This document shows, in pieces, positions 2,834-64,000 of a stretch of 64,000 nucleotides of DNA. The translations under genes and the position numbers were made by a program. The first letter of the stretch is position 1, and every line of letters begins with the position of its first letter. Under the pieces are notes generated by a model. The model was given only the letters and a program-made list of their open reading frames with translations. It ran no database searches and was not told the origin of the DNA. The stretch lies in IMG/VR virus record IMGVR_UViG_3300038366_000033, positions 14,378 through 78,377 of that record; one strand, 5' to 3'. Source of the stretch: a virus.

Positions 2834-2874
2834 GTTGGAAAACTGGAAACAGTATATGGAACACGCGTTCATCA

Positions 2875-2916
2875 AGCAGTACTGGTCGCTCGGGGGTTCG
2901 ACTCCTCCGGCTGCTA
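2875..2916 (+). ncRNA. tRNA-like minihelix (acceptor + T arm, no D or anticodon arm)
   Basis: AGCAGT pairs with GCTGCT+A; GGGGG-TTCGACT-CCTCC T arm; GAAACAGTATAT promoter-like element at 2846-2857. Confidence 0.55.
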
Positions 2917-2972
2917 TCTATGGTAACAACTACCATGCATACCATACAACTTTACGGCGAGGTAAAATCACA

Positions 2973-3338
2973 ATGATGGATCAACCATTTTACATGGTCG
3001 AGGTATCAAGATCGGACGCGGAAAAGATGCAGACGTACATGTTCGAAAACAACCTTCAGCATTACTTCGACATGGACGAGAGAAGAGTCGAGAAGGTCGA
3101 GAGAGTACCACTGGAAAAGATCAACCACTTCACAGAGGAACACGTACAGGAACTCTTCAGAAGCCTAGAACAGGAATACGACTTCAGCTTCGAGAAGGAC
3201 CACTCGGACATGAAGAAATCTGTCCAAGAGATGAGAGAGGCTATCAGAGATGCTCTGGTAAGTGAGCTCATCCAGAAGGGAGATAAGGACGACACGTTCT
3301 CAGAGGCTCTTTTGAGAGGTGTAGAAGATGCCGGTTAA
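2973..3338 (+). CDS. hypothetical protein
   Basis: acidic portion of ORF 2781 from ATG 2973, GAGGT RBS. Confidence 0.7.
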   Translation: MMDQPFYMVEVSRSDAEKMQTYMFENNLQHYFDMDERRVEKVERVPLEKINHFTEEHVQELFRSLEQEYDFSFEKDHSDMKKSVQEMREAIRDALVSELIQKGDKDDTFSEALLRGVEDAG

Positions 3339-3501
3339 AGAGGTAACAGTCGAGGATCCTGGAGACGGATATATCAAACACGAACTCGGCGACGCCAAAG
3401 TCGAGGTAATTTACCGGGCGGACGACGAACTAGAGGTGGTCTTTACAAACGGCGACCGCTATGTGTACCCGATTTCAAGAGTGGTGTACTACGTAAAATG
3501 A
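3328..3501 (+). CDS. 57-aa protein, KTSC-like motif (not in ORF track)
   Basis: MPVKEVTVEDPGDGYIKHELGDAKVEVIYRADDELEVVFTNGDRYVYPISRVVYYVK; coupled on both sides. Confidence 0.6.
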   Translation: MPVKEVTVEDPGDGYIKHELGDAKVEVIYRADDELEVVFTNGDRYVYPISRVVYYVK

Positions 3502-3959
3502 AAAGGAGAGTGAGAGTAAAAACAGGGGTGTCGATGCTTTCAGTCGCCTTACTTGTTGTTATCTCATTCGTACTGGGACAGGCGACATCGAACCCCGAGC
3601 TCACATTGAATCAGGCCGAGACCCCAGCATGGGAGTACATGCACGTCAACTACACGGGGAGCTTTCACTCTGGCGGATACCACTTTCACTTCAGACAGCA
3701 AGGCGAGGGCATGTTAAGAAACAACTCTGTGGGGATTACAAGAGCCAAGGACCCCAGAAATGACATATACATCAGGACAGATAGGTCCGGCAAAGCGATC
3801 ATCAGGACGTGCCGACACGAGGTCCTGCACCACTACTTCCCGAACTACAAGCACCAAGATGATGTCAGCAGGTGGGACGACCCTATCTATATGTTAGAGG
3901 ACAACGTCGAGTTCGCCACCTGTAAGTACATGATGCAGAAGATTCAGAGACTATCCTAG
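3498..3959 (+). CDS. membrane-anchored zincin-like metallopeptidase domain protein
   Basis: N-terminal hydrophobic helix; HEVLH (HExxH) after IYI strand. Confidence 0.55.
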   Translation: MKRRVRVKTGVSMLSVALLVVISFVLGQATSNPELTLNQAETPAWEYMHVNYTGSFHSGGYHFHFRQQGEGMLRNNSVGITRAKDPRNDIYIRTDRSGKAIIRTCRHEVLHHYFPNYKHQDDVSRWDDPIYMLEDNVEFATCKYMMQKIQRLS

Positions 3960-4219
3960 GCCGGGACAAAATACCGGCCCTCTCCACATTCTGGACACTC
4001 GAAGTGGAATAGCTCCTTACCTCTTTCGATATCGTCATCTAGGTGACGATCACCTGTTTTCTTATATACTTCTAGTACCTCTTCGATTCCCTTCCAGATA
4101 CGTCTTCCCTTGATCGTGATATCGCACTTGTTTGGTCCGGTCGGTTTCATCTCCTCGGAGGTTCTCGCTTTGAACTTGGCCTTGATCTTCTCGGTCTTCT
4201 CGTCGAAGTCCATATACAC
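3956..4219 (-). CDS. CPxCG zinc-ribbon protein
   Basis: FHFECPECGE. Confidence 0.65.
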   Translation of the reverse strand: MYMDFDEKTEKIKAKFKARTSEEMKPTGPNKCDITIKGRRIWKGIEEVLEVYKKTGDRHLDDDIERGKELFHFECPECGEGRYFVPA

Positions 4220-4234
4220 ATATTAGAGACCCAG

Positions 4235-4396
4235 ACACATAAAGGTATTTAAAGCGGGAACTTTGGGCTTGTGTGTGTGTCTCACCGAATGAGTGTTCAA
4301 TTCCAGAAGTTTCCACATGAAACCAAGGTAAACACAAAAAGGTATTTAAGGTGGGAAAGTTGCCGCCGTGTGTGTGTCTCACCGAATGAGTGTTCA
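4235..4396. repeat. imperfect tandem repeat, 97-bp period, perfect 29-bp core
   Basis: GTGTGTGTGTCTCACCGAATGAGTGTTCA at 4271-4299 and 4368-4396, each preceded by AAAGGTATTTAA. Confidence 0.95.
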
Positions 4397-4502
4397 GATT
4401 CAACCTGCATTTAAAAGGGCCCATCTTACAGAATCTGTAAACGTTTCTGAACAGTTTTCCACATAACCTTTTTGAATGACTTTTACATGACAACAGCTTA
4501 CA

Positions 4503-5258
4503 ATGGCATTAGACAGAGATAAGTTGAAGAAAGCCGGCAAAGCTGCCGGTCTCGGTGTCGTCGGAGCCGGAGTTGGGGCACTAGGATCCCAGCAGGTAGA
4601 CGACGCACCATCAAAGGAGAAAGTACAAAACCTACAAGATCAGAAAGCTGACCTAGAGGAAAAGGTCGCCAATCTGGAAGAGAGACCTACCCAGGAGGAC
4701 CTAGACAATAGAGTCGCGGACCTCAAGGAAGATACGGTAGCTCAGAAGGAGTATCTAGAGCTCAAAAACAAGTACGAACAGGCATACACTCAGGAAGAGG
4801 TAGACGCGCTAGTCGCAGACGCCGAAGAGAGAGAAGGACTTGTTGGCTACCTACCAGTACTGGTAGACGAGGAAGTCGAGCTCAGGAACGGCGATGTCGA
4901 GGCCAAACATGACGTACAGGCAACAGACGGCAACCTAGAACACCATGTGGTCGCAGATGACGCTGACTTTGACGAGTCAGATCTCGACAACGAGGAATAC
5001 GACCAGATCAGAGCCGTTTACAGACACGACGACGGTCATCAGTATGAAGTACTTGTCAGAGCCTTCGAGGACGGAGACGACGCAGACGAGTACGAGGGAG
5101 AGCTCAGACAGGCAGTAGAGTTCGCAGACTACGACGACCAGATAGATGCAGACGCAGACGTCATAAGATCGGGCGATACAGTACTGTACCTTAAGGGCGA
5201 GGCAGACGTAGACGACTACGACACTTACAGGTACGACAAACTTGTAGGCCAGTATTAA
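4503..5258 (+). CDS. N-terminally anchored, coiled-coil, very acidic surface protein
   Basis: basic N-terminus + AAGLGVVGAGVGALG, heptad region, D/E-rich C-domain. Confidence 0.75.
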   Translation: MALDRDKLKKAGKAAGLGVVGAGVGALGSQQVDDAPSKEKVQNLQDQKADLEEKVANLEERPTQEDLDNRVADLKEDTVAQKEYLELKNKYEQAYTQEEVDALVADAEEREGLVGYLPVLVDEEVELRNGDVEAKHDVQATDGNLEHHVVADDADFDESDLDNEEYDQIRAVYRHDDGHQYEVLVRAFEDGDDADEYEGELRQAVEFADYDDQIDADADVIRSGDTVLYLKGEADVDDYDTYRYDKLVGQY

Positions 5259-5280
5259 TCTGGCCCCCTTTCTATTTATC
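5247..5280 (+). terminator. hairpin + pyrimidine tract
   Basis: GGCCAG-TATTAAT-CTGGCC then CCCTTTCTATTT. Confidence 0.5.
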
Positions 5281-5318
5281 AAAACTTACTTAAAGTTGCG
5301 AGAGCTCATTGAACCATA

Positions 5319-5501
5319 ATGCCAAAGTGGGAAGACGACAAGCAACAGCTTATTGACAACATACTCGACGAACTAAACCTCCTATCCTCTGAGACTGAAA
5401 AACTCATGCTCATTTACGAGGTCATGATGTCACTCGACAAGGAGAAAATGCCAAAGATGATGAGGTCGGCACTTGACTGGCCGGACGATGATGTCATATG
5501 A
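5319..5501 (+). CDS. hypothetical protein (leaderless)
   Basis: AAAACTTACTTAAA promoter-like element upstream. Confidence 0.65.
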   Translation: MPKWEDDKQQLIDNILDELNLLSSETEKLMLIYEVMMSLDKEKMPKMMRSALDWPDDDVI

Positions 5502-5686
5502 AGTATTCTCTATGTGCGAATTGCGGCCTCAGGATCGATTACACCCAGATGCGGTGTGCGATGCACAAAAACAAAGACAGAAAAACCTCAGCAGTGAAGA
5601 TAGATATACCATGAACTGCGACCATGAAACATACACAGACAGGTGCAAATCATGCTTCATAAGATATCTGATGAACTTTGTGAGAG

Positions 5687-5893
5687 TTGGAGATGACTGA
5701 ACTAAGATGTAAGGACTGCGGCGACAGAACAGAACACCTCATCTACAAACAGAACCTGTACAAATACAAGGGCGAGAGAGTCAGATCCTGTAAGAAATGC
5801 GGCAAACTCCGGACGGAAAACAACGAATATGTATCGGAGAGAGAAATGATACACCTGCCGTCACAGAAAAAAGTTAAAAACATCGAGGACTAG
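5687..5893 (+). CDS. zinc-ribbon protein
   Basis: CKDCG...CKKCG; start may be ATG 5693. Confidence 0.7.
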   Translation: MEMTELRCKDCGDRTEHLIYKQNLYKYKGERVRSCKKCGKLRTENNEYVSEREMIHLPSQKKVKNIED

Positions 5894-5901
5894 AATAGCA
5901 T

Positions 5902-6147
5902 ATGCCCTACGACGAAGAGGACGAATACGTAGTCGACTTCAACGACCTTGAATCCGTGTTCGAGGACCTCCGCAGGTACGACGAAGAGGATGATGAGACA
6001 AACTATGGCGCTGTCCAGGCTTCACTGTACGTAGCACTGGAAGATCATATGTATACAGGCGGCGCTGATGCCCTGAACGTTGCCAGACACCTAGAACGCG
6101 GAGAGATAGACGAGGCACAGGAACTGACTGAAGAGATGCTTGAATAA
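5902..6147 (+). CDS. hypothetical acidic protein
   Basis: composition and position. Confidence 0.7.
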   Translation: MPYDEEDEYVVDFNDLESVFEDLRRYDEEDDETNYGAVQASLYVALEDHMYTGGADALNVARHLERGEIDEAQELTEEMLE

Positions 6148-6318
6148 TCAGTGCCCGTGTTCCTCAACCATCTCCTCTATTAAATCCGACATTTCTTCGT
6201 AGAGTTCTTCGCCTATCGGGTTGTCGCTAGAAACCCGTACCGAAACCCTGTTCCCGGCTACGTCTGTTGAGTGTGTCTGAACCTTGCCATTGTAGTCGTC
6301 AAACTTGCCCTCGCTCAT
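6148..6318 (-). CDS. hypothetical protein
   Basis: acidic part of ORF 6148-6420 from MSEGKF. Confidence 0.55.
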   Translation of the reverse strand: MSEGKFDDYNGKVQTHSTDVAGNRVSVRVSSDNPIGEELYEEMSDLIEEMVEEHGH

Positions 6319-6504
6319 GTCTCGGAAATAGACCTGAAACTTTTTATCTCTCACGCCAAGCTTTATTTGGCAGCGTAACAAAGCACATATCATAAAGATG
6401 ACAGAGTTCTGGCGTATCAAGGAATCAGCACCGCCCTACGAATACCCACTTGAATGGGTCAACGAAAGAAAAAAGACCAGCGCTGTGCTGGAAAAGTGGC
6501 GAGA

Positions 6505-6888
6505 ATGAGTACACGATCAAAGGGAAATGCCAGAGAACGGCAATGTGTACAGACTCTCGAAGAGGCAGGCTGGCATGTCCACAAAAAAGTCAACAACACC
6601 TACGACTCGGGCGACATGTTCGAGCTCTTTGACTGCGTCTCTCTCCGCAAAGGGTATGCTCCAATATTCATCCAAGTCAAATCGAACCGTACTGACGGAG
6701 CTTTGAAAGCTATCTCAGAGGCCGAGTTTGTAGACCCGGCACAGATCACACCAGAGGTATGGGTCTTCCATGACAGAGAAGGCTGGCGCGTCAAACGACT
6801 TACGGAAGATGGCTGGGAAACGATAGTGGACGAAAGAGACAATGGCATGAACACGACCGAAGAAACTATAAAGCTTTATTCTGAATAG
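6505..6888 (+). CDS. hjc: Holliday junction resolvase, archaeal Hjc-like
   Basis: SKGNARERQCVQTLEEAGW...FD...FIQVKS; start 6505 coupled by ATGA to a 36-aa ORF at 6398-6508. Confidence 0.8.
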   Translation: MSTRSKGNARERQCVQTLEEAGWHVHKKVNNTYDSGDMFELFDCVSLRKGYAPIFIQVKSNRTDGALKAISEAEFVDPAQITPEVWVFHDREGWRVKRLTEDGWETIVDERDNGMNTTEETIKLYSE

Positions 6889-6895
6889 GTATCAT

Positions 6896-7303
6896 ATGAC
6901 AACCGACAGATTTTCTGTGGACAAGACGTTTACCCACTGTGGATATACGTGTGTCATAGCTACGATCAAGGACGACTACCACTGTGGATATATCGCGATC
7001 CCTGACGAACACAATATGGCCGGAAAAGATTATACGGAGATCGACGTGACCGTACACGGCGGACTCACCTTCGGACCGCAAAACGACCTTCACGGCATGG
7101 GCGAGGACGATGATACAGTCTGGTACGGCTTCGACTGTGCACACGCCGGAGATCATACGAGATCGATGCCTGGCGGCACAAACTGGCAGTCAGAAGACGT
7201 CAGGGAAGAGCTTCTCAATCTGGCCGAACAGTTCAGGGACCTAGACACCTCGGAGACAAAAAGTATTTATAGCCTGATGCAGGGATTCTTACCATGGAAC
7301 TAG
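6896..7303 (+). CDS. conserved phage hypothetical protein
   Basis: CGYIAIP..H, VHGGLTF and WYGFDCAHAGD motifs. Confidence 0.75.
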   Translation: MTTDRFSVDKTFTHCGYTCVIATIKDDYHCGYIAIPDEHNMAGKDYTEIDVTVHGGLTFGPQNDLHGMGEDDDTVWYGFDCAHAGDHTRSMPGGTNWQSEDVREELLNLAEQFRDLDTSETKSIYSLMQGFLPWN

Positions 7304-7461
7304 ATAGATACGAGACCCACCGGTACATCAGAACACGCATACAGAAATGCTCTGACGAAGACCACGTCCAGCAAGTCGCTTACTCTGCCTACGAGGACGG
7401 TCTGACACAGACCTGTTTCACGTGTGACAAGGTCAGGACAACAATAGGTATGGAAGTATGA
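7294..7461 (+). CDS. 55-aa Cys/His microprotein (not in ORF track)
   Basis: AAAAAGTATTTATA promoter upstream; C..H...CFTC. Confidence 0.55.
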   Translation: MELDRYETHRYIRTRIQKCSDEDHVQQVAYSAYEDGLTQTCFTCDKVRTTIGMEV

Positions 7462-7514
7462 GCTATTTGTAACACAGAAAATATTTTAAAGGCAACTAAA
7501 GTCTTTGTCTTGTT

Positions 7515-7865
7515 ATGAACTCCTCTTTCATGAAAACATTTCTCAACGTCAGAGTAGCTGACACGCCCGAGGAGAGAAAGACGGGACTTCAGGGCAGAGA
7601 GAAACTACCCGACTACGAGGCACTTTTACTTGACTTTGATCAACCCGGCAACCACAAGATATGGATGAAAGATACACATGTCCCTCTCGACATAGTTTTC
7701 ATGGACGAAGATGCCAACGTCACAGACATCAAACACGGCGAACCACTGGACACCACCAAACTGTCCGCAGATGATAACGTCTCTTACGTCCTAGAGCTCA
7801 AACGCGGGAAGGCAGAGGACTTCGGTATTGAACCCGGAAACTCTATGGAGGATATAGTACTATGA
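7515..7865 (+). CDS. DUF192-family protein
   Basis: VADTPEERKTGL, IWMKDTHVPLDIVF, YVLEL. Confidence 0.85.
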   Translation: MNSSFMKTFLNVRVADTPEERKTGLQGREKLPDYEALLLDFDQPGNHKIWMKDTHVPLDIVFMDEDANVTDIKHGEPLDTTKLSADDNVSYVLELKRGKAEDFGIEPGNSMEDIVL

Positions 7866-8005
7866 CATGTGATTCATGTGTAATCGTCGCCGCCTTACTT
7901 GTTGCAATGATCACGTCCTACTTTCTTGCTATATACAATTATGTTGGACACGAAGACTGTCACCACATTTCCAGTGAAGATGAACAAAAGAGTTTAAAAG
8001 CATAG
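7862..8005 (+). CDS. 47-aa single-TM peptide (not in ORF track)
   Basis: VIVAALLVAMITSYFLAIY; ATGA overlap. Confidence 0.5.
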   Translation: MTCDSCVIVAALLVAMITSYFLAIYNYVGHEDCHHISSEDEQKSLKA

Positions 8006-8021
8006 ACACGTAATTATGTGA

Positions 8022-8156
8022 TAGTGGTCGGTCATGGGTTGTCGACCAAAGGTTGTTGCGATTGCATCGGTTGATTTCGGTACGCGCACCTTTGCGGTAC
8101 CGGATAAAGGGTGCATGTGACCCCTATCGTGGAAGATAAGCGTAGGGGGGCACCCA
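8022..8156 (+). ncRNA. candidate structured ncRNA (four stem-loops)
   Basis: promoter-like AAAAGAGTTTAAAAG at 7986-8000; stems TGGTCG/CGACCA, TTCGGTAC/GTACCGGA, GGGTGC/GCACCC enclosing CCCCTA/TAGGGG. Confidence 0.6.
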
Positions 8157-8201
8157 CATATTATCCAAAGCTTTTTGAACCTGACTACATAATATACGTA
8201 T

Positions 8202-8555
8202 ATGGATAACAGACTTGACCTCCTCTCCGAAACTGTACGGGATTCCGAATACAAAGACTTGTTTCCTGCAACTTCTCCCGAAGACGCCAGATCTGACCGT
8301 GAAAAAGTCAAGGAAGCGATATTTCAGGTACACCACATGATTTACGACGAGAACCTGAGACAACTCGCAGTCTCAAGCGATGCAGGACTGATACCTTTTG
8401 AGGACGTTCTTAACTCGTGTAAAGACATGGACGACCGTGAAAGAGCCCGGACACTGCTGGCTTCAGACATCACAGAGTTAGAGGACGGCACAGAGGTTGT
8501 CATGAGATCGGACCTACTAAACGTACTGAAATCTCAGAAGGAGGCGGTCCGGTAA
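8202..8555 (+). CDS. hypothetical protein
   Basis: leaderless, acidic. Confidence 0.7.
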   Translation: MDNRLDLLSETVRDSEYKDLFPATSPEDARSDREKVKEAIFQVHHMIYDENLRQLAVSSDAGLIPFEDVLNSCKDMDDRERARTLLASDITELEDGTEVVMRSDLLNVLKSQKEAVR

Positions 8556-8758
8556 TGGCACTCTGTGACAGAGACCACTGCAGCGAAGGAGCCACTACAC
8601 GCATACAGAGATCCGACAGAGACAATCTGTACTTATGTGACGAACACAAGTCAAAGCTCGCCGACAAGATAAGAGACAAAGTCGTGGAAAAGTTCGATGA
8701 CCTCTCGGAGGAAGAAATCAAAGACCGGATGCTTGACGGGGGCGCAGACCTGCTGTGA
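8555..8758 (+). CDS. small Zn-binding protein
   Basis: CDRDHC...LCDEH. Confidence 0.65.
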   Translation: MALCDRDHCSEGATTRIQRSDRDNLYLCDEHKSKLADKIRDKVVEKFDDLSEEEIKDRMLDGGADLL

Positions 8759-9288
8759 CTGACATCCGCGACAAGCACGACGAGATAGCCGAGGAGACAG
8801 ATGTCGACCTAAAAGATTTCAAATACTACGCGGTCGGATTTCACGTCGCGGACTCACTGATAGGCAAAGACCCCGGACAGCCGGAGTTCGTCGTGACGGA
8901 AGAAGACCACGAGTCGATGGTCGACCGCGGCTTCAACCATCTCGAAGAACGGTACTATGACCTAGACGGAAGATACGTCTTCACTCTCGCGGAGGGCGAC
9001 AACTCTCTGGAAGCTCACCTCAGACGAAAGAGAACTTTCACTGTCGAGGCCATCGCCATGAAACCGGGAGAGCAGAGTTACCACTTTCCGCTTATGAACA
9101 CGTTTGACGACGACAGAGAGAGACCGGAGAAACCGGTGGATCCGATAGCTGATCTCAAGAACGGGGTCATTCGCCACACGACAAAGGAGGCGGTCGAGAA
9201 CGCCGGTGACTTCCAAGAAGAGCTAGAGGACATCAAGCACAGATATCCGGACTTCGAGCTCGCAGAAGAGACAAGAAAACTGATGTGA
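8755..9288 (+). CDS. degenerate class II tRNA nucleotidyltransferase (CCA/poly(A) polymerase head domain)
   Basis: YYAVGFHVADSLIGKDPGQPEFVV; SLEAHLRRKRTFTVEAIAM; VDPIADLKNGVIRH. Confidence 0.65.
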   Translation: MTDIRDKHDEIAEETDVDLKDFKYYAVGFHVADSLIGKDPGQPEFVVTEEDHESMVDRGFNHLEERYYDLDGRYVFTLAEGDNSLEAHLRRKRTFTVEAIAMKPGEQSYHFPLMNTFDDDRERPEKPVDPIADLKNGVIRHTTKEAVENAGDFQEELEDIKHRYPDFELAEETRKLM

Positions 9289-9289
9289 G

Positions 9290-9775
9290 ATGGGCTTTGA
9301 TCTTGACTCTCTCAAAGTCGCCGAGATATCGGGAGAGGGCGCCCGGAAGAAGGTAGATCACATCATAGAACGGAACCACTACCTGCAGTCAGTACCCTTC
9401 GTGCCTACAAAACACAGATACCTGATCACCTTCGGTCTCAAAGGCGTGGTCGGTGCCGCAGCGTGGGGCAAGCCGGTCGCACGTATGGAGGACCAAGAAG
9501 ATACTGTAGAACTCCTGAGGTTCTGGACCGCCGACTCCACGCCGAAGAATACTGAGTCCAAGGCCCTAGGGTACATGATGCGAGACATGAAGGACAAGGG
9601 CTATGAGAGACTGATCGCCTACGCCTCCGAGGGAGAAAACCACGAAGGGACAATCTACAGGGCGACGAACTGGGAGATAGAGAAGAGAACAAACAGGTCG
9701 GGCACGTGGGAAAACAGATCCGGCAGAAACGACCGCGACAAGGCAGATAAGATCAAGTTCTGTAAGCAACTGTAA
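9290..9775 (+). CDS. Mom-like (GNAT-fold) DNA modification enzyme
   Basis: NHYL, GAAAWGKPVAR, ELLRFW, PKNTESKAL, IAYAS...HEGTIYRATNW. Confidence 0.8.
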   Translation: MGFDLDSLKVAEISGEGARKKVDHIIERNHYLQSVPFVPTKHRYLITFGLKGVVGAAAWGKPVARMEDQEDTVELLRFWTADSTPKNTESKALGYMMRDMKDKGYERLIAYASEGENHEGTIYRATNWEIEKRTNRSGTWENRSGRNDRDKADKIKFCKQL

Positions 9776-9798
9776 CTCTTATCACGTTTAATATACAA

Positions 9799-10635
9799 TT
9801 AAGTTTGTTTGAGCCTATTAAGTGACTGATTGATGTACTCTTGCTGCGTTTCCATTCCGATATATTCTCTATCTCTTCTCTTAGCCGCCACTAAACAACT
9901 TCCGCTTCCAGCAAAGATGTCTACTACTTTGTCTCCTTTGTACGAGTAGAATTTGATTACTCTTTCAGCCAACTCTACTGGGAAAGGGCAAGGATGGTCT
10001 GTTTCTTGAGGTGCTGTAGGTCTAATCTTCCAGGCATTTTTGCTTTGCTCTCCCTGATAGTCAGAAAGATCTATTTCATTCTCTTCCTTTTGCTCTTGAC
10101 TTTTGTCGTGGTAGATATTCTGTTTTGAGTCGCTTTCTGCTGGTTTCTGGAAGACGAAAATATATTCTGTCACTAGACTTGGATAATAATAACCAGGGTA
10201 TGGATGCTGCATCAACACTCCGGATCTTCTATCCTTAGCAACTGGTTTTTCCCAGACTATATCCTCTTGGAACTCCCAGCCAATCTCTTCCATCCAGCTG
10301 ACGAAATGAAAGGGTAATGCAACTCTATCTCCGTTCCAGGAGACAGGAGCGATGTTAACGACATTATATCCACCGGGCTCTGTTATTCTGAATAGCTCTT
10401 CAAACCTCTCAGTCAGAAAGTCTCTGTACTCATCATAATTTATATCCTCCCTCTCCCATTTTTCGTCATTGTCTAAATTTTGCGTGTGTTCATCATAATT
10501 CACAGCATTGAGGTATGGTGGAGATGTGAAGCACAAAGTAATCTCACTCTTGTCTATATCCCTCATCACATTAAGACAGTCACCTTTGATAATAGTCCCT
10601 TTGGATCCAAATGTTTCATAGTCGGAAAATTCCAT
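9799..10635 (-). CDS. beta-class DNA amino-methyltransferase (probably m4C)
   Basis: TSPPY motif IV precedes DIFAGSGS motif I; HPCPFP. Confidence 0.9.
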   Translation of the reverse strand: MEFSDYETFGSKGTIIKGDCLNVMRDIDKSEITLCFTSPPYLNAVNYDEHTQNLDNDEKWEREDINYDEYRDFLTERFEELFRITEPGGYNVVNIAPVSWNGDRVALPFHFVSWMEEIGWEFQEDIVWEKPVAKDRRSGVLMQHPYPGYYYPSLVTEYIFVFQKPAESDSKQNIYHDKSQEQKEENEIDLSDYQGEQSKNAWKIRPTAPQETDHPCPFPVELAERVIKFYSYKGDKVVDIFAGSGSCLVAAKRRDREYIGMETQQEYINQSLNRLKQT

Positions 10636-62150: not shown

Positions 62151-62669
62151 ATGGCTGACGATCCTAAGAAAGGTGATGGCTGGGATTTCGACGAGAGTGA
62201 AACTTGGGAGGAAGCGTTCGAGACGGACGAGAACGGCGAGGTAGACCTAGACCAGTATGACGAGTTTGACAGTATGCACGAGCTCGCAGCACACATTTCT
62301 GGTGCTGACGGATCAAGAGCTTATACTCCTGGCCAAGAAGATTATGAGATGAAGAAGAGACAGATGATGAACGACCGCTGGGAGGTGCCGGGTAAGATCG
62401 AACAGATAAGCGAATACCTAGAAGAGGAGGAGAATCTTACTCCAAACGAAATCAATCTGGACCCGTCCGCCGAGACCGAAATCTACATAAGTCAACAGGA
62501 TGCTAGAGCTCGCGGTCATGACACCAAGTATACGGTCCACTTCCTAGCTTATGACCCTGATGAACAGCCGGAGGATGGAGTGATTGACGCACAGTTTATG
62601 ATAGAAGGATCGTGGTACGACAAGGATCCGTCGAATATGAATCTGGAAGATGTGTTTGGCTACGATTAG
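62151..62669 (+). CDS. hypothetical acidic protein
   Basis: TTTATAT about 30 nt upstream of ATG 62151. Confidence 0.65.
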   Translation: MADDPKKGDGWDFDESETWEEAFETDENGEVDLDQYDEFDSMHELAAHISGADGSRAYTPGQEDYEMKKRQMMNDRWEVPGKIEQISEYLEEEENLTPNEINLDPSAETEIYISQQDARARGHDTKYTVHFLAYDPDEQPEDGVIDAQFMIEGSWYDKDPSNMNLEDVFGYD

Positions 62670-63403
62670 TCCTTAAGGTTGCCGTCCGGTTCGGCACGGC
62701 CGAGTTCTTTCTTTACCTCTACCTTGAAGGTCTCCTTGCCGCAGTAGAAACATTCGTCCTCGCACTTGTCGAAAGGATTCTCGTACTCTGTGCCCTCTTC
62801 TTCAGCGTGTCTGACAGCCTGTGCGACCGCCTTCATATTCTCGACAGTCTTGTCGAAAAGGTCTTGGTCAAAGTCGAAGGTATGTCTTATCATCTTTTCG
62901 TCCTCAGGGAAGCTTCCGTCTCGCGTGACGTATTCTAACTGCCCTGTTTCTACGCCGTCGAGACCGTAGATGTACATGTTGACTTGGCGTTTGTCCTTGT
63001 CCTTTGGTGCGTCTGTTACGTAGTATGTGTTGCCTGTGTACTTGTGGTCATAGACGTTGCCCTCGTCGTCAACAGCGTCGGCCTCTCCGTAGACGTAAAG
63101 GTCGAAGTCTGCCTCTGTCTCAATCCTGACGCGGACTCTTGTCTCCGTGCGCAGCGCCCTATCATCTATGAGCTCCGGCAGGTTGTGTTCCAGCCAGAAG
63201 TGATTGCGGGTCCCGGCGTGAAGTATGCCCTTGATATCTCTGGGCATCGTTGTGAGAGAGAACTTGCGGTTGTACATCTGGCGCTTGCAGTACCCGGTCA
63301 TCGAGGGAGAAAACTGGTTGTATGGTTTTGGGGTTCGGCCGTAGTCCGGTTCGATTACCTTTTCCTCGACGATTTTGTTCAGGAACAGAGGATCCTTACC
63401 CAC
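62666..63403 (-). CDS. Cas4-like Fe-S nuclease (solo)
   Basis: SPSMTGYC, GTRNH, GEAD, YDHK, QVNMY, C-terminal CEDECFYC. Confidence 0.8.
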   Translation of the reverse strand: MGKDPLFLNKIVEEKVIEPDYGRTPKPYNQFSPSMTGYCKRQMYNRKFSLTTMPRDIKGILHAGTRNHFWLEHNLPELIDDRALRTETRVRVRIETEADFDLYVYGEADAVDDEGNVYDHKYTGNTYYVTDAPKDKDKRQVNMYIYGLDGVETGQLEYVTRDGSFPEDEKMIRHTFDFDQDLFDKTVENMKAVAQAVRHAEEEGTEYENPFDKCEDECFYCGKETFKVEVKKELGRAEPDGNLKD

Positions 63404-63785
63404 TCTCGAACAACTCCTTAGACTGTTTGTAAGCTTTCTCGAAGAGAGTGCGTTTGAGCTCCAGTAGCTTGACGGTCTCTTTGTCCTTTTCTCTGACCAT
63501 CGCCTCCATCCTGTCGAAGCGTGTGTTGGTTCTGAGCTTCAGAAGTCTGAGTCTTCCTACCTCTGTAACTTCCCACATGAGATCGTCGTTGACGCCCTCG
63601 GGGATCCGTTTGATGAGGTTCTGTGACTCAAGACCGCGCACCTCTACCTGTATTCGCTCTGGTTTACAATTATACTTGTCGCCGATTTCTTTTAGCGTGA
63701 GAGAAGGGTTCAGCGCCAAAACTTGGAACACCGATTCCTGATTTGCCGTGAGGTCACCCGTGACTCTGTCTTCCACCAAATCCAT
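63396..63785 (-). CDS. winged-HTH regulator
   Basis: LTLKEIGDK...LESQNLIKR...WEVTEVG; start at MDLVED. Confidence 0.7.
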   Translation of the reverse strand: MDLVEDRVTGDLTANQESVFQVLALNPSLTLKEIGDKYNCKPERIQVEVRGLESQNLIKRIPEGVNDDLMWEVTEVGRLRLLKLRTNTRFDRMEAMVREKDKETVKLLELKRTLFEKAYKQSKELFESG

Positions 63786-64000
63786 GGATGGTATCAAGTA
63801 AAGCACCCTTAAATAAGTGTTGACGCAATACCGACAGCACATGCTGCACGGACTACCGGAGATCGAGACACGCTGATGTACTGCAGAAGGTATGCTGCAA
63901 ATGCTCTGACAGAATTGCCCATGTATCCGAGTGACTCGGGAGTTATGCCGGACTCGCGGATGTCTCGCGAAGTATCTATGCCGTGATCGCCGAATACTTC

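Follow-up and report, generated by a model that had tools for sequence, protein, structure and literature searches.

Comparison with related loci shows that positions 2875-2916 of a tailed archaeal virus encode a conserved 42-nt RNA fold, a predicted copy of only the acceptor/T-arm stack of a tRNA. Positions refer to the window, the whole 64,000-nt stretch of viral DNA analyzed here. The element may well be a t-element-like processing or end-forming signal that is read by RNase P/tRNase Z in read-through transcripts. We regard the minihelix as confirmed at the level of sequence comparison, because relatives of the virus carry corresponding elements, because these elements differ by compensatory changes and because an independent covariance model matches the element in the window.

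Form and genomic setting of the minihelix

The window corresponds to bases 14378-78377 of a 78,377-base IMG/VR virus record. Bases 1-1670 of the record are collinear with bases 76708-78377 (window 62331-64000) at 92.3% identity. Because head and tail match over these 1,670 nt, the assembly wraps on itself around a genome of ~76.7 kb and is essentially complete, in contrast to the IMG/VR listing of the record as linear with a CheckV completeness estimate of 71%. The overlap joins two strain variants. The terminase, archaeal-type genes and promoters identify the virus as a tailed archaeal virus. It encodes a large terminase, a RadA protein with Rad51 and HHH_5 domains whose nearest clusters are archaeal and an ERCC4-type nuclease, together with a weak match to Alba. 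A ribonucleotide reductase, a Mom-like protein and a DNA methylase are also encoded. The sequencing runs that contain the virus are viral metagenomes and hypersaline-lake metagenomes. No cultured-phage relatives were found for the window or for three class-member loci of the kind described below, and the viral contig collection held no protein-level relatives of the virus.

Ten promoter copies in the genome place a TTTATAAG box ~30 nt before leaderless ATGs. Located upstream of the window (record bases 4076-10506), these copies precede small genes as units of the form oligo-T / TTATAAGG / N16 / TATAATACCG-ATG. They are predicted to be strong leaderless promoters and are the source of the spacing rule used below.

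The minihelix lies in a 139-nt gap between two packed gene blocks (165-2833 and 2973-3959), in an intergenic position and on the same strand as the flanking genes. The upstream block ends with a gene for a 404-aa P-loop NTPase (1619-2833, + strand; phrog_1250). This protein shares ~25% identity with T4-type nrdC.10 proteins of jumbo and T4-like phages. Between its stop codon (2831-2833) and the element lie 41 nt that contain a BRE/TATA-like box, GGAAAC-AG-TATATGG (2845-2859, + strand), which is a putative promoter; no oligo-T run is present in this interval. On the other side, an 18-codon ORF (2920-2976, + strand) starts 3 nt after the discriminator and ends in a TGA that overlaps the ATG of the next gene at 2973. 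This gene (2973-3338, + strand; 121 aa, no family) has a GAGGT Shine-Dalgarno-like site at 2960-2964 and opens the block that runs to 3959. Directly 3' of the minihelix is a second hairpin, ATGGTA-ACAAC-TACCAT (2920-2925/2931-2936). It is kept, with one compensatory pair, at 2575-2589 of the related locus L003, and an ATG lies in the 3' arm in both cases.

All parts of the element lie on the + strand. The acceptor-like 5' strand is AGCAGT(A) (2875-2881), of which AGCAGT (2875-2880) pairs with 2910-2915 to form a helix of five Watson-Crick pairs and one U.G pair. Pair 3:70 is C-G, and A2881 stands unpaired against G2909, which leaves an A.G mismatch at position 7:66. The 11-nt linker ACTGGTCGCTC (2881-2891) contains TGG; the 10 nt that follow the mismatched A (CUGGUCGCUC, 2882-2891) stand where a tRNA has its D arm, anticodon arm and variable loop. 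The T arm (2892-2908) consists of GGGGG (2892-2896), the loop TTCGACT (2897-2903) and CCTCC (2904-2908), which give a 5-bp stem with one G.U pair and a G53-C61 pair and a 7-nt UUCGACU loop. The acceptor-like 3' strand GGCTGCT (2909-2915) abuts the T stem with zero spacer, and the discriminator A (2916) is followed by TCT, with no encoded CCA. The element is 42 nt in total and has neither D arm nor anticodon arm. The preliminary description had given exactly these parts and coordinates; its account of an acceptor stem and T arm lacking a D arm, an anticodon arm and CCA can be read directly from the DNA and describes a conserved architecture. The BRE/TATA-like element that it reported just upstream is likewise present and is conserved in the related loci L003 and L006.

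For the isolated 42-mer, the minimum-free-energy structure is exactly the acceptor/T-arm minihelix, with an energy z-score of only -0.84, and an alternative extended hairpin (2883-2916) is equally stable in the window. The UGG of the linker is likely a mimic of D-loop G18-G19, and we infer a role in mimicking the tRNA elbow. Population variants in the gap fall, among those listed, at 2851, 2871, 2883, 2916 and 2947-2952, and none of the listed variants lies in a stem or in the T loop. The T>C variant at 2883 leaves the GG of the linker intact, and A>C segregates in the population at discriminator 2916.

Taken alone, the window element is not beyond chance, and the case for it rests on comparison. 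Its T arm by itself is at chance level for a 64-kb window. The sole Rfam match is a local match of the T arm to tmRNA (E 0.022 in 1 kb, which amounts to about one per 64-kb window), and the acceptor pairing has a shuffle p of 0.085.

Several other identities were rejected. For a canonical or intron-containing tRNA, ARAGORN (default settings, with or without introns) finds no gene in the whole genome, lowered thresholds give implausible folds and Rfam gives no tRNA match. A split tRNA of the Nanoarchaeota type or a permuted tRNA is opposed by the presence of the partner strand in cis and by the absence from the 78 kb of an AGCAGCC-type strand with D-arm-like sequence. The tRNA-like domain of tmRNA was set aside on the grounds that pair 3:70 is C-G and not G3:U70, that ARAGORN finds no tmRNA and that the Rfam match covers the T arm only. 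We know of no archaea with tmRNA. A short-peptide reading is contradicted by the T loop, which lies in different frames in L003 and L006, and by a CTG in the window where both relatives have ATG.

Relatives of the element and a wider viral class

We identified ~25 metagenomic homologues of the P-loop protein and recovered seven loci from a metagenome scan, four of which extend beyond the end of the P-loop gene. L006 and L003 have the same arrangement as the window directly after an orthologous P-loop gene; their P-loop proteins are 47-50% identical to that of the window and 79% identical to each other. Common to all three loci are a GA.AA..GA.AC-TATAT box and a 6-7-bp helix that abuts the T arm, and the TGGT of the linker and the G-TTCGA-N-TC of the T arm are invariant in the three. 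The pairing proposed from the window is kept in the relatives through compensatory changes. The acceptor strands differ and yet pair (AGCAGT/GCTGCT in the window, AGCACG/CGTGCT in L006 and TGTGTGG/CCACACG in L003), with G-C to C-G and U.G to G-C changes between window and L006 and further compensatory changes relative to L003.

A three-row alignment has 90.9% of cells paired, compared with 42-70% in slid controls, and five pairs changed on both sides, a covariation count that rests on trimming the alignment to begin at the proposed 5' strands. The fairer statistic, because of this trimming, is the per-locus shuffle p value for pairing, which is 0.028 for L006 and 0.0056 for L003. Conservation within the virus family covers three loci with the element, of which L003 needs two linker insertions to fit. 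The T stems of the relatives contain mismatches (U.U in L003 and G.A in L006), the fold-energy z-scores of the elements range from -0.8 to -1.7 and neither L006 nor L003 conserves the extended hairpin seen at 2883-2916. Pair 1:72 and the discriminator are variable (U.G and U in L003); the earlier argument for a tRNA identity from A1:U72 and A73 fails on this point, as neither is conserved. The window, L003 and L006 have different genes 3' of the element, and in each of them the discriminator is followed within 0-4 nt by a start codon.

The element is absent from L005 and from the distant L007. In L005 (1095-1135), the same gene boundary is occupied not by the minihelix but by a hairpin bearing a T6 run and, after it, a TTTTTATAAG promoter; this combination of terminator and promoter is a different solution to the same task. 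In L006, the TATA box is enclosed by a perfect 8-bp hairpin (795-821; CACCGTAT...ATACGGTG), the 3' arm of which could instead pair with CACCGT in the 3' half of the minihelix, so that the two folds could compete.

Exact-word scans of viral contigs with the window, L003 and L006 elements and their common promoter word gave no match. A pattern scan of IMG/VR, which required the linker word of L003/L006 and then the T-loop word, returned at least 119 loci. ARAGORN tRNAs contain 6 of the 119 matches listed. Many distinct listed matches are built from a 6-7-bp acceptor helix, (A)AUGGUUGA, another 1-5 nt, a perfect 5-bp T stem with a UUCGAUU loop and an acceptor 3' strand, a fixed geometry that is expected about once in 10,000 tries in random sequence. 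The linker position of class members is occupied by (A)AUGGUUGA or CUGGY, and further minihelices at the same loci have other linkers (CUGGC.. and CUUGGUGCAU..). Class members are 41-46 nt long, with linkers of about 9-14 nt that contain a conserved UGG.

To compare the window with this class, we used covariance model R2, which derives from alignment A8 of 17 elements of unrelated IMG/VR contigs, none of them from the virus family of the window; the elements were chosen for pairing, and the pair statistics are partly by construction. R2 matches the window end to end at 2875-2916 (model positions 1-42 of 42; 36.0 bits, E 3.6e-7), and the next-best score in the window is 12.4 bits. This test is independent for the window, because its linker and its T loop TTCGACT did not match the scan pattern. 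It is partly circular for the relatives, among which L006 823-867 scores 44.3 bits and L003 2519-2572 scores 22.3 bits (E 0.0028) in a match that uses exactly the proposed 5' strand. Class members score 28-57 bits under R2, and other viral genomes carry one or two strong copies each. A second copy of the minihelix was found neither in the window (models R1 and R2) nor in the whole 78-kb genome (R2). The unpaired 7:66 position occurs in 13 of 17 members and is a class trait.

The closest look-alikes of the window element among the matches listed are the 42-nt members at L017 8614-8655 and L012 7754-7795, which have in common with it an AGCA start, a CUGG linker start, a UC linker end and a UGCU end. 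The TTCGACT loop of the L017 member is identical to that of the window, and the linkers nearest in form to CUGGUCGCUC, again among the matches listed, are CUGGCACUUC (L017) and CUGGUGCAUAAG (L020). The window element agrees with the class in its length of 42 nt, 6-bp acceptor, unpaired 7:66, YUGGY linker, 5-bp T stem, UUCGAYU loop and lack of CCA, and it is likewise intergenic and co-oriented. It differs in its linker, CUGGUCGCUC, from the commonest class linker, AAUGGUUGA, and a 41-nt spacer with the promoter box lies between it and the stop codon, whereas many class members adjoin the stop. Its host, set against the class, is an archaeon of hypersaline water.

Among 37 distinct members in the matches listed, 28 are intergenic and 18 begin -8 to +12 nt from the upstream stop codon; 20 are co-oriented with the flanking ORFs and 1 has the opposite orientation. 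Judged by these predicted folds, the class is widespread, occurring between genes of many unrelated viral contigs and mostly on the gene strand, and a cross-domain distribution is suggested. Rfam at its curated thresholds gives no report at any class-member locus scanned. We found no Rfam family for the minihelix class, and no published description of such a class in DNA viruses in the literature searched.

Some contigs hold additional tRNA-like features. L012, L017, L056, L107 and ~50 sister contigs of 55-60 kb, all from IMG/VR sample 3300045988, have several minihelix types each: a 42-nt type (AGCAAGG..), a 46-nt type (TCGCGTG..), a 49-nt type (AGCGGTT..) and an L003-like type (CTCATGGTTGA...TGGGTTCGATTCCCTCC) with a weak T stem. 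At L106 3814-3894, 81 nt align with the full length of the Rfam tmRNA model (57.6 bits) and may represent the tRNA-like domain of a tmRNA that lacks its entire interior; a minihelix is 1.3 kb away, and a tRNA-Met gene is nearby. At L073 6116-6201 (- strand), ARAGORN calls an 86-nt tRNA-SeC (tca) that overlaps a minihelix-class match; the call may be false or may reflect a larger tRNA-like RNA.

Candidate functions of the minihelix

A t-element would act as follows. Transcripts of the upstream P-loop block would read through into the gap, since no oligo-T terminator lies between the blocks, and would fold the minihelix. Host enzymes that recognize the acceptor/T-arm stack and the elbow would then act on it, RNase P cutting at 2874/2875 and tRNase Z after A2916. 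The outcome would be either separation of the two gene blocks or an upstream message left with a protected tRNA-like 3' end. The downstream message would be released in near-leaderless form, beginning 3 nt before its AUG. Near-leaderless messages are translated well by haloarchaea. The conserved TATA box in the gap would serve as a second, internal promoter for the downstream block.

Several properties of the element are consistent with such a signal. What is conserved in it, namely the stack of acceptor and T arm, the T loop, a GG that could pair with this loop as in a tRNA elbow and the lack of CCA, is what RNase P, tRNase Z and the CCA-adding enzyme recognize (PMC4919913). RNase P reads the stack of T stem-loop and acceptor and needs the T loop and not the D loop, and CCA is an anti-determinant for tRNase Z (PMC4919913). 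In Haloferax, both RNase P and tRNase Z cleave t-elements, which also function when transplanted (PMC4326828). The variation of pair 1:72 and of the discriminator fits processing enzymes that read shape rather than a synthetase.

Promoter geometry bears on which transcript contains the fold. The TATA box of L003 ends only 8 nt before the 5' strand, so the promoter there cannot make the whole minihelix and only upstream transcripts could contain the complete fold. In halovirus HF2, the TATA box lies at about -24 to -28 (PMC8707807); the same spacing applied to the window predicts a start site at ~2879-2885, inside or past the 5' strand. These two observations argue that the fold forms in read-through transcripts and not in a transcript of its own, and the class context (co-orientation, intergenic position and proximity to stop codons) points to read-through too. 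The preliminary description had offered two functions, a signal for RNase Z processing of the downstream mRNA and a tRNA mimic or decoy. The processing signal fits better, given the L003 TATA geometry and the start-site spacing; the decoy is the less likely candidate.

Some features sit less easily with a t-element. The window element is 41 nt from the stop codon where many class members are adjacent to it, the alternative hairpin in the window is as stable as the minihelix and the family evidence comprises three loci, one of which (L003) needs its two linker insertions. Elsewhere in the class, the geometry would place RNase P cuts exactly at or inside stop codons, which would leave truncated messages; protection of an end may therefore describe the function better than cutting does. 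In addition, the conserved promoter just upstream could mean a self-standing small RNA. For such a gene, the BRE/TATA box would drive a leaderless minihelix of ~42 nt that, trimmed by tRNase Z and given a CCA, mimics a tRNA in trans without decoding, for instance as a decoy or sponge that captures host factors or defence toxins directed at tRNA acceptor ends. We consider this unlikely; what credit it retains comes from the promoter box, which is conserved in all three loci and whose TATAT begins 22-23 nt ahead of position 1 in two of them, the window and L006. The GG of the linker and the T loop are conserved as if the elbow must form, the virus encodes no tRNA of its own and antiphage toxins that read acceptor stems exist in bacteria, according to a preprint (bioRxiv 10.1101/2024.07.05.602228). 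The promoter of L003, however, cannot include the 5' strand, standard spacing places the start in the window some nucleotides too late and no terminator is conserved (a T4 run occurs in L003 only). The discriminator and the 1:72 pair vary, and many class members abut stop codons, which leaves no room for a promoter. A related proposal is that the 42-nt minihelix is excised, tailed with CCA and active in trans as a non-decoding tRNA top half, as one member of a universal class of viral RNAs, spread over viruses with very different hosts, that occupy or divert acceptor-end readers; this strikes us as rather unlikely. Candidate targets would be processing enzymes, the CCA-adding enzyme, elongation factor and defence toxins that target acceptor ends. 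Among ~40 ORFs of the virus scanned, no RNA-processing enzyme was found. ORF 8755-9288, previously proposed as a partner in the form of a degenerate head of a CCA-adding enzyme, has no Pfam match even at E 10 and no sequence match in the PDB, which leaves the assignment unsupported at the sequence level.

It is quite improbable that the element is a cis-acting structure in the 5' leader of the downstream block, with transcription starting inside it at ~2880 and stability or translation tuned, without any tRNA enzyme, by a T-arm-like hairpin acting alone or together with the second hairpin and the 18-codon ORF. Predicted starts do fall at a conserved A-N-UGGU motif in all three loci, the extended hairpin at 2883-2916 matches the minihelix in stability and the second conserved hairpin and upstream ORF follow directly 3'. 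A leader of this type leaves unexplained, however, the conserved pairing with the 5' strand, the exact T-loop sequence of a tRNA and the match to a class located behind stop codons in unrelated viruses, and the extended hairpin is missing from L006 and L003. Decay of a viral tRNA gene that has lost its D and anticodon arms and has no present function would account for the imperfect stems (a U.U in the T stem of L003, a G.A in L006 and the unpaired 7:66) and for the ordinary fold energies (z-scores -0.8 to -1.7), and truncated tRNA-like genes are kept by other viruses (PMC8707807). Such a relic is nevertheless very improbable: the T loop, the GG and the pairing survive where the protein of the neighbouring gene is ~50% identical, the stems change by compensatory steps, the 41-46-nt format recurs in many unrelated contigs and the 7:66 mismatch is itself a class feature. 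Fragments of tRNA 3' ends are classic attP cores. Halovirus HF2 has a tRNA-like attP (PMC8707807), and an attP site copied from the 3' end of a host tRNA gene and used by an integrase is an explanation that the preliminary description had itself raised as an alternative. It is extremely improbable here. Searches for tyrosine (PF00589), serine (PF00239) and SSV-type (PF16795) integrases found none in this essentially complete genome, and neither a 22-mer nor a 21-mer of the element has an exact match in 185,579 species genomes, among which the host is possibly not included. The matching 5' strand is not needed by an attP site, and the T stems of the relatives are mismatched.

Known tRNA-like elements and significance

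The closest known functional counterparts of the proposed t-element are those of haloarchaea and plant mitochondria; in form, the closest counterpart is the minihelix class itself. Haloferax volcanii has a tRNA-like structure upstream of 5S rRNA, as reported for Holzle et al. 2008 and 2012 in PMC4326828. Like the window element, the haloarchaeal t-elements are non-decoding tRNA-like folds that offer RNase P and tRNase Z an acceptor/T-arm surface with no CCA after it; they lie within a longer archaeal transcript, as the window element probably does. The known cases are cellular and not viral, and the window element has only two helices and a 10-nt linker. The t-elements of plant mitochondria and the mitochondrial tRNA punctuation model (Forner et al. 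2007, PMC1920247) share a position at cistron borders, with mRNA ends expected at the ends of the fold, and the contact with the stop codon that is frequent in the class is also a property of mitochondrial tRNAs. Most t-elements of organelles are degenerate versions of whole tRNAs, whereas the minihelix class is compact (41-46 nt), has a conserved linker and belongs to viruses of prokaryotes.

Two further systems invite comparison. Both the tRNA-like attP of HF2 (HrrHF2_450; PMC8707807) and the window element are truncated tRNA-like sequences of haloarchaeal tailed viruses, and tRNA finders reject them or give them low scores. The HF2 sequence is 57-72 nt long, adjoins an integrase and matches Halorubrum tRNA genes exactly, whereas the window element has no integrase and no host match and does have its 5' strand in cis. 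The tRNA-like domain of tmRNA, the only Rfam match, has an acceptor and T arm, an analogue of the D loop and no anticodon arm, and the window element differs from it in lacking the G3:U70 alanine identity pair, the mRNA-like part and the pseudoknots.

Precedents for tRNA-like processing signals come from plant mitochondria, a single haloarchaeal rRNA operon and a few long RNAs of eukaryotes; to our knowledge, such signals are not a regular feature of bacterial or archaeal viruses. The present comparison shows a compact acceptor/T-arm minihelix that is under selection in an archaeal virus lineage, matches a model derived from unrelated viral contigs and goes unreported by tRNA finders and Rfam. 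If these folds do direct host RNase P and tRNase Z, they would punctuate viral operons in a general way that annotation has missed so far, and would account for the splitting of long viral transcripts and for a possible post-transcriptional route to leaderless messages in archaea. If the minihelix acts in trans instead, it would be a new kind of tRNA mimic, and the synthetic "minihelix" would have a natural counterpart as a widespread viral effector. Either way, the class deserves a curated model.
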